Below are positions 6,481 through 7,303 of a stretch of 10,796 nucleotides of DNA, piece after piece. The notes below the pieces were generated by a model, which searched no databases, was not told the origin of the DNA, and worked only from the letters and a program-made list of their open reading frames with translations. Numbering within the stretch: position 1 is the first letter of the stretch; every line of letters starts with the position of its first letter. The DNA lies in IMG/VR virus record IMGVR_UViG_2690316318_000025, positions 1 to 10,796 of that record; one strand, 5' to 3'. Both the position numbers and the translations under genes were made by a program. This DNA is from a virus. Lineage: Duplodnaviria > Heunggongvirae > Uroviricota > Caudoviricetes.

Positions 6481-6821
6481 ATGTTTTCGAAATGGAAGGG
6501 TTTCTTCGCGGGAAATGTGTACCGCGAGATCTGAAAGTGAATGAAACAAATGCTGAGTATCTGGTGCGTAAATTCGATGAAGTACGTGCTGAGGCTCGCA
6601 ACGAGGGTATTAACTATACCGCAAGCCGTCTTGCTGCTGCTTTCAATCACGGATTTATCAATAAGCCTTTGGCTGAAGTTTTCGACGTTACACGCATGAT
6701 TCTGTCAGCAAAAGAAGAGTTAGCTAATGAATCGCATCCGATTGATGGCCTGTCCGGTGAATATGCAGAGAAATCCCTTGAAGAATGGGCGGAACGGCTT
6801 CGCAAAGGAGGCAGCCAGTGA
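6471..6821 (+). CDS. Hypothetical early-left protein (YfdS-like position), 116 aa
   Basis: ORF 6471..6821 (+). ATG 6471 with GGAG about 8 nt upstream; overlaps the yfdR stop by 10 nt. No recognisable domain; acidic and helical in character. Confidence 0.6.
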   Translation: MRMNVFEMEGFLRGKCVPRDLKVNETNAEYLVRKFDEVRAEARNEGINYTASRLAAAFNHGFINKPLAEVFDVTRMILSAKEELANESHPIDGLSGEYAEKSLEEWAERLRKGGSQ

Positions 6822-7303
6822 CTGGACATGCAGCAATCCTCGACATGTGCTGTGGCAGTCGCATGTTCTGGTTCGATAAGAATGACGACCGGGCGATATT
6901 TAGCGATATCAGAAAGGAAGAGCACACATTGTGTGATGGACGACGCCTGATTATCAGTCCTGACCTGATAGCTGATTTTCGTGCACTACCATTTGCAGAC
7001 GCATCCTTTTCGATGGTTGTATTCGACCCTCCGCATCTTGAGCGTGTTGGTGATAACGCCTGGATGGGAAAGAAATATGGACGGCTGAATAAAGATACCT
7101 GGCGTGATGATTTACGGCAGGGATTCAAAGAAGCCTTTCGTGTGTTGTGGCCATACGGCGTTCTGATTTTTAAATGGAATGAAACGCAAATACCTGTTCG
7201 CCAGATATTGGCACTGACCGACAGAAAACCTGTTATCGGTCAACGAACAGGAAAGGGTGACAAGACCCACTGGATTATTTTTATGAAGGAGGGCAACCAG
7301 TGA
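6818..7303 (+). CDS. Small SAM-dependent methyltransferase, probably an N6-adenine/N4-cytosine-type DNA MTase with a DPPH catalytic motif, ~161 aa
   Basis: GTG at 6818 overlaps the upstream stop (GTGA), with AAGGAGG RBS at 6804-6810. Alternative starts are ATG 6785 (track ORF) or ATG 6845. Motif I-like ILDMCCGSRMFW, acidic FSDI, and motif IV VVFDPPH. No adjacent restriction endonuclease candidate, so an orphan MTase. Confidence 0.6.
   Translation: MTGHAAILDMCCGSRMFWFDKNDDRAIFSDIRKEEHTLCDGRRLIISPDLIADFRALPFADASFSMVVFDPPHLERVGDNAWMGKKYGRLNKDTWRDDLRQGFKEAFRVLWPYGVLIFKWNETQIPVRQILALTDRKPVIGQRTGKGDKTHWIIFMKEGNQ

Follow-up and report, generated by a model that had tools for sequence, protein, structure and literature searches.

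M.NgoMXV and its homologues are unusual gamma-class methyltransferases that form N4-methylcytosine (m4C) (PMC3874165), and they are the closest described systems to the phage gene considered here. M.NgoMXV/M.NgoDCXV was cloned from Neisseria gonorrhoeae, and its close homologues have been reported to be confined to streptococci (10.1101/2019.12.17.880476). In Streptococcus iniae, QMA0248_1949 is 95% identical to M.NgoDCXV (AJ004687.2), an orphan gamma-class m4C methyltransferase with the target GCCHR, and GCCHR-specific methylation was not detected in the lysogen (10.1101/2019.12.17.880476). The sole prophage of S. iniae has 44 genes and starts at the integrase gene QMA0248_1936 (10.1101/2019.12.17.880476); QMA0248_1949 lies 13 genes after the integrase and is therefore an early-region prophage gene, like the streptococcal members of the family treated below. 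Here we describe a probably related gene in a stretch of 10,796 nucleotides (nt) of DNA, hereafter the window (positions 1 to 10,796 of IMG/VR record IMGVR_UViG_2690316318_000025), which is a lambdoid Escherichia coli prophage of the CPS-53/KpLE1 type. Its product, of 161 amino acids (aa), is to our mind somewhat more probably than otherwise a stand-alone, phage-borne S-adenosylmethionine (SAM)-dependent amino-methyltransferase without a target-recognition domain (TRD), a minimal gamma-order form of the M.NgoMXV kind that probably makes m4C on DNA. It is best classed with the minimal methyltransferases resembling M.NgoMXV, a kind already described though little studied, as one of their enterobacterial representatives.

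The general features of M.NgoMXV (an orphan enzyme, a gamma-type order with motif I before motif IV, an Asp-type motif IV, and location on a mobile element) all fit the window protein: motif I (residues 7-14) precedes motif IV (residues 67-73), no endonuclease accompanies the gene, and the gene sits in an early operon. The name 'DNA N-4 cytosine methyltransferase M.NgoMXV' has been applied by depositors, JGI and UniRef to Klebsiella and Streptococcus members of the family; the Klebsiella protein so named clusters under a representative that shares 83% identity with the window protein, and the numerous streptococcal members so named are 146-161 aa long. Several phage records likewise call the gene a cytosine or N4-cytosine methylase, and the family is abundant in streptococcal prophages at the same early position. 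When species-representative genomes were scanned with a streptococcal member, only Streptococcus and allied Firmicutes were recovered, with no Neisseria and no S. iniae. The reported 95% identity to an S. iniae protein and confinement to streptococci make an odd distribution for a gonococcal gene, and point either to recent transfer or to a question about the origin of the clone.

The gene and the motifs on which its assignment depends are as follows.

6818-7303, plus strand: coding sequence of a minimal class I SAM-dependent methyltransferase, 161 aa, GTG start and TGA stop; read from the sequence, with the same coordinates given by the Prokaryotic Genome Annotation Pipeline (PGAP)
6805-6811, plus strand: Shine-Dalgarno sequence AAGGAGG, 6 nt 5' of the GTG; read from the sequence, with GGAGG-type sites at the same position in relatives
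6818-6821, plus strand: GTGA, in which the start overlaps the stop codon of the Eae-like gene just upstream (translational coupling); read from the sequence
6836-6859, plus strand: motif I, ILDMCCGS, residues 7-14, strand beta-1 and the SAM-binding loop; from alignments and the AlphaFold model
6905-6907, plus strand: Asp30, the invariant acidic residue that ends beta-2 (residues 26-30), motif II; from both alignments
7016-7036, plus strand: motif IV, VVFDPPH, residues 67-73, strand beta-4 and, after it, the catalytic DPPH loop; from alignments and the AlphaFold model

Comparative evidence indicates that this open reading frame (ORF) is an intact gene under purifying selection and not a chance ORF, because a homology search finds homologues down to E=1e-108, the ratio of nonsynonymous to synonymous substitution (dN/dS) against a 94%-identical relative is 0.13, and in more distant pairs synonymous sites are saturated with dN still at 0.1-0.34. 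The gene is present in 945 of 5,426 complete E. coli genomes, about one in six. RefSeq already lists the identical protein, with a generic name, and the gene is a routine accessory gene of lambdoid prophages.

The start codon is likewise well supported by sequence comparison. The GTG at 6818-6820 overlaps the TGA at 6819-6821 that ends a 116-aa Eae-like ORF (6471-6821), and the methyltransferase ORF ends with the TGA at 7301-7303, giving a product of 18.8 kDa. A mechanical list of ORFs had proposed an alternative start, the ATG at 6785, with a product of 172 aa; no stop codon excludes it, and it has no Shine-Dalgarno sequence and draws no support from the comparison with relatives. We regard the GTG as the start because four lines of evidence agree: PGAP, in E. 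coli RM9088 (DNA 99.6% identical), gives identical coordinates for the coding sequence (WP_148050659.1); among 23 relatives with unrelated upstream DNA, the homologous start codon is GTG in 12 (all within GTGA) or ATG in 8, and in most of these a GGAGG-type site stands 5-8 nt upstream, with an ATG one codon later in 3 others; the region similar to phage PhiR42_1, whose upstream gene differs, spans just the methyltransferase gene (window 6816-7311); and a 4-nt overlap with whichever gene lies upstream is the commonest junction (45 cases in 86 related loci). The first-pass annotation, made from the sequence alone, had placed a GTG within GTGA behind an AAGGAGG ribosome-binding site and had pointed out the SAM-binding and DPPH motifs; all of these lie where it had put them, and the start now has the backing of the 23 relatives.

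The motifs themselves are intact and invariant across the alignments of the family. The SAM-binding segment ILDMCCGSRMFW occupies residues 7-18 and VVFDPPH residues 67-73 (nt 7016-7036); the alignment to the Methyltransf_25 profile begins at residue 7, and within motif I C12 is invariant and G13 nearly so. In an alignment of 31 diverse members the invariant residues are C12, D30, R32, P48, D70-P-P-H73, L90, E105, R108, K119, W120 and P138, and D70, P71, P72 and H73 hold without exception in those 31 and in 118 further homologues. By analogy with the general class I methyltransferase fold, Asp30 is expected to bind the ribose of SAM. His is uncommon in the fourth position of the (D/N/S)PP(Y/F/W/H) loop. 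A zinc site formed by the CC/C/H residues was considered and rejected, as only C12 is invariant in the diverse alignment.

An AlphaFold model built on the 118-sequence alignment (predicted local distance difference test score 92.2, predicted template modeling score 0.88) has strands at residues 7-9, 26-30, 64-69, 110-121, 140-144 and 150-156, a small hairpin at 34-46 in place of the usual helix B, and helices only at 82-87, 95-109 and 127-131. The strand order is the canonical one of the class I (Rossmann-like) SAM methyltransferases, with LDMCCGS and D30 conserved, and the DPPH loop follows directly on strand 64-69, as in amino-methyltransferases. As modeled, the protein is a bare seven-strand class I core, with no room for a TRD and no N-terminal motif X helix, which agrees with the earlier remark that it has almost no space for target recognition. 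Longer homologues agree with this as well: their N-terminal extensions are unrelated to one another, which rules out an additional domain common to them and leaves a conserved unit of about 150 residues. Structural comparison with Foldseek gives class I methyltransferases as the best matches; in the Protein Data Bank (PDB) the top hits are Trm11, which forms N2-methylguanosine (m2G) at position 10, and an archaeal rRNA m4,2C synthase, the Trm112-dependent enzymes Bud23 and Trm9 also rank high, and M.TaqI, an N4-cytosine methyltransferase and TTHA0409 are likewise among the top Foldseek hits. The active site is thus of the amino-methyltransferase type on a Methyltransf_11-like core.

Some homologues carry more than the core. 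In a 248-aa class from Leclercia, Klebsiella and Citrobacter, the methyltransferase has a C-terminal extension of about 85 residues, and a 279-aa homologue (P0002) has a longer one that looks Ea22-like (coiled-coil) by eye. Fusions occur occasionally: of two proteins, P0449 (Streptococcus pyogenes, 207 aa) and P0128 (234 aa), one fuses the core to a YopX domain (PF09643), and the other has an N-terminal CxxC...C segment with the look of a Lar-type restriction-alleviation zinc ribbon and no Pfam hit.

The first-pass annotation had also called the gene an orphan, and this holds within the window and beyond it. No restriction endonuclease domain was found in any ORF of the window, so the adjoining cognate endonuclease gene of a type II restriction-modification system is missing. 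When the genes directly abutting the methyltransferase gene in 86 loci were clustered, no recurrent partner emerged, the largest neighbor family occurring in 10; this heterogeneity rules out a conserved partner protein such as a Trm112-like activator or a DNA-binding subunit. The gene is a self-contained cassette. Its phage homologues are always in early replication or recombination modules: in A118 it follows a DnaD-like loader, in a Porphyromonas phage it follows a primase, and in S. pyogenes phages such as T12 it stands among small early genes. Other methylase genes may lie close by. In Gordonia phage Eviarto (L005 1418-3468) it overlaps by 4 nt the end of a gene for a 525-aa 'DNA methylase', and a second DNA methylase gene is beside or near it in Akkermansia phage Chantilly and in several S. 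pyogenes prophages; such loci form small islands of methylase genes within the early regions of phages.

Profile libraries place the protein among methyltransferases of differing generality. Pfam gives the window protein only generic, sub-threshold matches, to Methyltransf_11 (18.7 bits, cut-off 21.2) and Methyltransf_25, and NCBIfam gives it nothing; across the family, the Methyltransf_11/25 models match 29 of the 31 diverse members. Phage and defense libraries are more specific, with PHROG 954 'DNA methyltransferase' matching at E=4.6e-88 and two PADLOC models matching over the full length, type II methyltransferase (PDLC03288) at 5e-74 and orphan methyltransferase (PDLC03730) at 9.5e-50; their labels suggest that these PADLOC models derive from REBASE. 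No Dam-type or MT-A70 model matched the window protein or the 31 members at E<=1 in Pfam or NCBIfam, and the RsmD model PF03602 touched 1 of the 31, at E=0.042. Dam-type, RsmD-like and MT-A70 were the families among which the first-pass annotation had proposed that a profile search would decide; none of these was borne out, and the assignment went instead to the DNA/orphan methyltransferase families of the phage and PADLOC libraries. A clear profile match to an rRNA or tRNA methyltransferase family, which it had named as grounds for abandoning the DNA methyltransferase reading, was looked for and not found.

The family is large and widely spread. It comprises at least about 8,000 clusters at 90% identity and 2,021 representatives at 50% identity (E<=1e-3), and tblastn found full-length matches in 256 phage records, with identities of 65% in Gordonia, 62% in Corynebacterium, 60% in Acinetobacter, 58% in Staphylococcus, 57% in Fusobacterium, 55% in Porphyromonas, 54% in Akkermansia, 53% for Listeria A118 ORF50 and about 50% in Streptococcus. 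Third-position GC tracks each phage (0.30 in Streptococcus, 0.47 in the window gene, 0.77 in Gordonia), and the similarity therefore reflects not recent transfer but strong constraint on nearly the whole protein. Annotation names are inconsistent, ranging over class I SAM methyltransferase, DNA methyltransferase, cytosine methylase, UbiE, BioC and TRM11, and a literature search found no direct characterization of this minimal methyltransferase family.

Taken as an M.NgoMXV-like enzyme, the protein would act in the following way. By analogy with lambda PL, the gene would be silent in the lysogen, and a repressor-controlled early promoter would transcribe the operon upon induction or infection. 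The methyltransferase, translated by coupling to the Eae-like gene, would bind SAM and add a methyl to an exocyclic amino group on a DNA base. The target would most likely be the N4 of cytosine at a short degenerate site, as reported for M.NgoMXV/M.NgoDCXV (GCCHR), although the base and the sequence recognized may not be those of M.NgoMXV, and the lack of a recognition domain would make for low sequence specificity. Replicating phage DNA would then leave the cell pre-methylated, and would be partly protected from restriction in the next host. The analogy with M.NgoMXV makes N4-cytosine, rather than adenine, the likely chemistry, and we infer that the biological role is anti-restriction or epigenetic, the two roles proposed at first sight. 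In published methylomes of lysogens that carry prophage genes of this kind, no corresponding signal appears and transcription is slight or absent, a silence that fits early-operon genes being off.

Several observations weigh against an M.NgoMXV-like DNA enzyme. The link to M.NgoMXV comes from names on homologues and from the literature, not from alignment, and identity between the E. coli protein and the streptococcal members is only about 48-50%; a measured activity was found for no close relative of the versions from E. coli, Listeria, Gordonia or Bacteroidota. No DNA-methylase model of Pfam or NCBIfam reaches threshold with the window protein or the 31 members, and neither the fold nor the sequence tells a DNA amino-methyltransferase from one that acts on RNA. 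A profile search of the PDB returned the generic protein PH0226 (6.8e-5), Trm11 (E=0.1) and RsmD (2ift, E=0.57), and some members bear the NCBI name 'TRM11 family methyltransferase'. The median isoelectric point of the family is near neutral. The lack of corresponding methylation in PacBio data from lysogens would also be expected of an enzyme with a substrate other than DNA. For a sequence-specific DNA methyltransferase, finally, an identity of 50-65% between phyla is unusually high.

This last point leads to one alternative, which we rate as unlikely: that the protein is not a conventional sequence-specific DNA methylase at all, and acts on one universal substrate in host takeover or counter-defense rather than in protection from restriction. 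The idea arises because identity stays at 50-65% in phages of Proteobacteria, Actinobacteria, Firmicutes and Bacteroidota with codon composition adapted to the host. Candidate substrates are a conserved nucleotide of rRNA or tRNA, DNA in single-stranded form or as a replication intermediate, and a nucleotide signal.

Improbable, in our judgment, is an N6-adenine DNA methyltransferase of little or no specificity that would methylate many sequence contexts during lytic growth. High conservation across phyla would suit an enzyme with no sequence target, and the modeled protein has no TRD. Moreover, a D-P-P-aromatic-type motif IV with Asp is typical of enzymes that form N6-methyladenine (m6A), those forming m4C having mostly Ser. 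There are also documented precedents, as non-specific adenine methyltransferases of prophages (M.EcoGI/II, Hia5) are silent in lysogens, and PamA, a 141-aa phage methyltransferase with NPPY, renders Staphylococcus aureus DNA sensitive to DpnI. However, the family names and the literature point to m4C, not m6A, and the sequence is unrelated to those of M.EcoGII, Hia5 and YfdM. Each of these candidates was set aside on its own grounds: M.EcoGI/M.EcoGII is a beta-class enzyme of 349 aa with a TRD, Hia5/Hin1523 (Hia5 281 aa) has DPPY and FxGxG, and PamA, with NPPY against the invariant DPPH here, serves as a conceptual precedent only. YfdM of CPS-53, a Dam-type fragment and a putative methylase needed by phage SW1, comes from a region with which the window is syntenic (yfdP-yfdQ-yfdR), but BLASTP finds no similarity between the two proteins.

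These comparisons separate the window protein from two larger groups. The small phage Dam-type methyltransferases (PamA, the YfdM fragment), which we take to be Pfam PF05869, are similarly tiny TRD-less phage orphans with motif IV around residue 65-70, but no similarity is detectable (YfdM being the one compared), and the window protein has DPPH rather than NPPY and a canonical N-terminal motif I. The beta-class PF01555 enzymes (M.PvuII, M.RsrI, TTHA0409, M.EcoGII), some of which are prophage-borne orphans silent in lysogens, are resembled by the segment that runs from motif IV across the next helix and strand (DPPH ... KKYG.L ... W ... E.FRVL.P.G.L.F), which is similar to their N-terminal catalytic half. 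Thirteen of the 31 members match the N-terminal (motif IV) part of Pfam N6_N4_Mtase weakly (best E=0.0013; profile positions 2-59 in the member examined), TTHA0409 appears in a single-sequence PDB search, and several beta-class viral enzymes appear in BFVD. Against membership, the window protein has no PF01555 hit at E<=1 and the hits of other members are sub-threshold; motif I, C-terminal in the beta class, is N-terminal here, the order being I and then IV, and the protein is half the size and has neither a TRD nor the motif X helix.

We consider it just as improbable that the protein is an RNA amino-methyltransferase, forming m2G, m6A or m4C on rRNA or tRNA in the manner of Trm11, RsmD or RsmC, by which the phage would change translation in its host or protect a tRNA or rRNA against a defense nuclease. 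The family shares with those enzymes the class I fold and a (D/N)PP(F/Y/H)-type loop after strand 4, and the Foldseek and PDB profile results and the TRM11 names given above all favor this reading; a universal RNA target would in addition account for identities of 50-65% in four bacterial phyla when the composition of the gene has fully adapted. The sequence matches to those enzymes are not significant, however, the RsmD/UPF0020 models of Pfam touching just the one member, at E above 0.04. THUMP and other RNA-binding domains are absent, the gene lies in phage replication/recombination modules and not with translation genes, sometimes beside DNA methylases, and the REBASE-derived models claim the family. 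Least probable of all, and in our view remote, is a substrate that is not a nucleic acid (a protein, a small molecule or a nucleotide signal), or a catalytically inert protein acting by binding, since the invariant DPPH is the signature for methylation of the exocyclic or amide nitrogens of bases or Gln, and all SAM-binding motifs are intact and under purifying selection; the Pfam similarity that most members share is to models dominated by small-molecule enzymes (Methyltransf_11/25), and a nearby gene encodes a YfdR-like 5'-deoxynucleotidase, but that neighbor is not conserved.

Among known methyltransferase cores, that of this family is one of the smallest, and target selection with no recognition domain poses a mechanistic question; such a core could also be a useful minimal scaffold. 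Of the accessory genes that unrelated phyla have in common in their temperate phages, this is one of the most conserved, and a substrate has apparently been measured for just one distant relative. As it stands, the present gene adds little, being common and already annotated.

As the first-pass annotation had said, the gene is phage-borne, and more precisely it lies inside a tightly packed early-left operon between the repressor gene and an excisionase-like gene. The other features of this operon are the following.

3222-3896, plus strand: S24-peptidase repressor gene
3908-3925: terminator hairpin directly after the repressor gene
3935-3962, plus strand: promoter-like TTGACA-16-CATAAT, 11/12 matches, candidate early-left (PL-type) promoter
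6471-6821, plus strand: upstream Eae-like gene, 116 aa, 'Eae protein' in RM9088; an operon neighbor, not a functional partner
7286-7303, plus strand: second AAGGAGG (7286-7292) and GTGA (7300-7303), coupling the Ead/Ea22-like gene to the methyltransferase gene
7300-8022, plus strand: downstream Ead/Ea22-like gene, 240 aa, Pfam Ead_Ea22 PF13935 at 5.9e-23; an operon neighbor
9846-9871, strand unassigned: strong G+C-rich hairpin terminator after the PrtN/TorI-like gene, 11 pairs of which 6 are G-C (minus-strand score)

On the plus strand, the S24-peptidase repressor gene is followed in order by genes for DUF2303 (YfdQ), an HD-domain 5'-deoxynucleotidase (YfdR), Eae, the methyltransferase, Ead/Ea22, DUF551, an Rv2179c-like 3'-5' exonuclease and a PrtN/TorI-like protein; on the minus strand are genes for PerC-like, replication (helix-turn-helix/DnaD_N), Ash, CII-like and YdaS-like proteins. 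Promoter-like sites are scarce (just 2 in the 6.4 kb scanned), and the one at 3935-3962 may serve the methyltransferase operon. The hairpin at 9846-9871 is likely the end of this operon, and its palindrome could act in both directions. The description as one tightly packed operon follows from the position of the genes between this promoter and this hairpin, with no comparable terminator between them on the plus strand.

GTGA overlaps of start and stop occur at three consecutive junctions of the early-left region (6818-6821, 7300-7303 and 8949-8952), with an identical AAGGAGG before the first two, which suggests a chain of translationally coupled accessory genes. The slot in which the methyltransferase gene lies differs between prophages. 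At 4991-6480, just 5' of the Eae-like gene, are homologues of yfdQ (DUF2303) and yfdR (HD-domain 5'-deoxynucleotidase) of K-12 CPS-53; after yfdR, K-12 has yfdS/yfdT in place of the Eae-methyltransferase-Ea22-DUF551-exonuclease set, and the region is therefore one of variable cassettes.

Among the neighboring products, the Eae-like protein has no Pfam match. The Ead/Ea22-like protein starts with a CxxC ... YACSS segment (CSVCGEEM...), possibly a zinc-ribbon-like N-terminus, and continues into a coiled-coil-like region. The gene at 8949-9524 encodes a 191-aa Rv2179c-like 3'-5' exo(ribo)nuclease (Pfam 9.8e-76), which also matches weakly the PADLOC model for a CRISPR-associated DEDDh nuclease. 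Two further ORFs, at 4332-4925 (up to 197 aa) and at 10260-10796 on the minus strand (178 aa), have no Pfam match; in RM9088 the counterpart of the latter is annotated as a 'hypothetical protein' and adjoins a YafO-family toxin.

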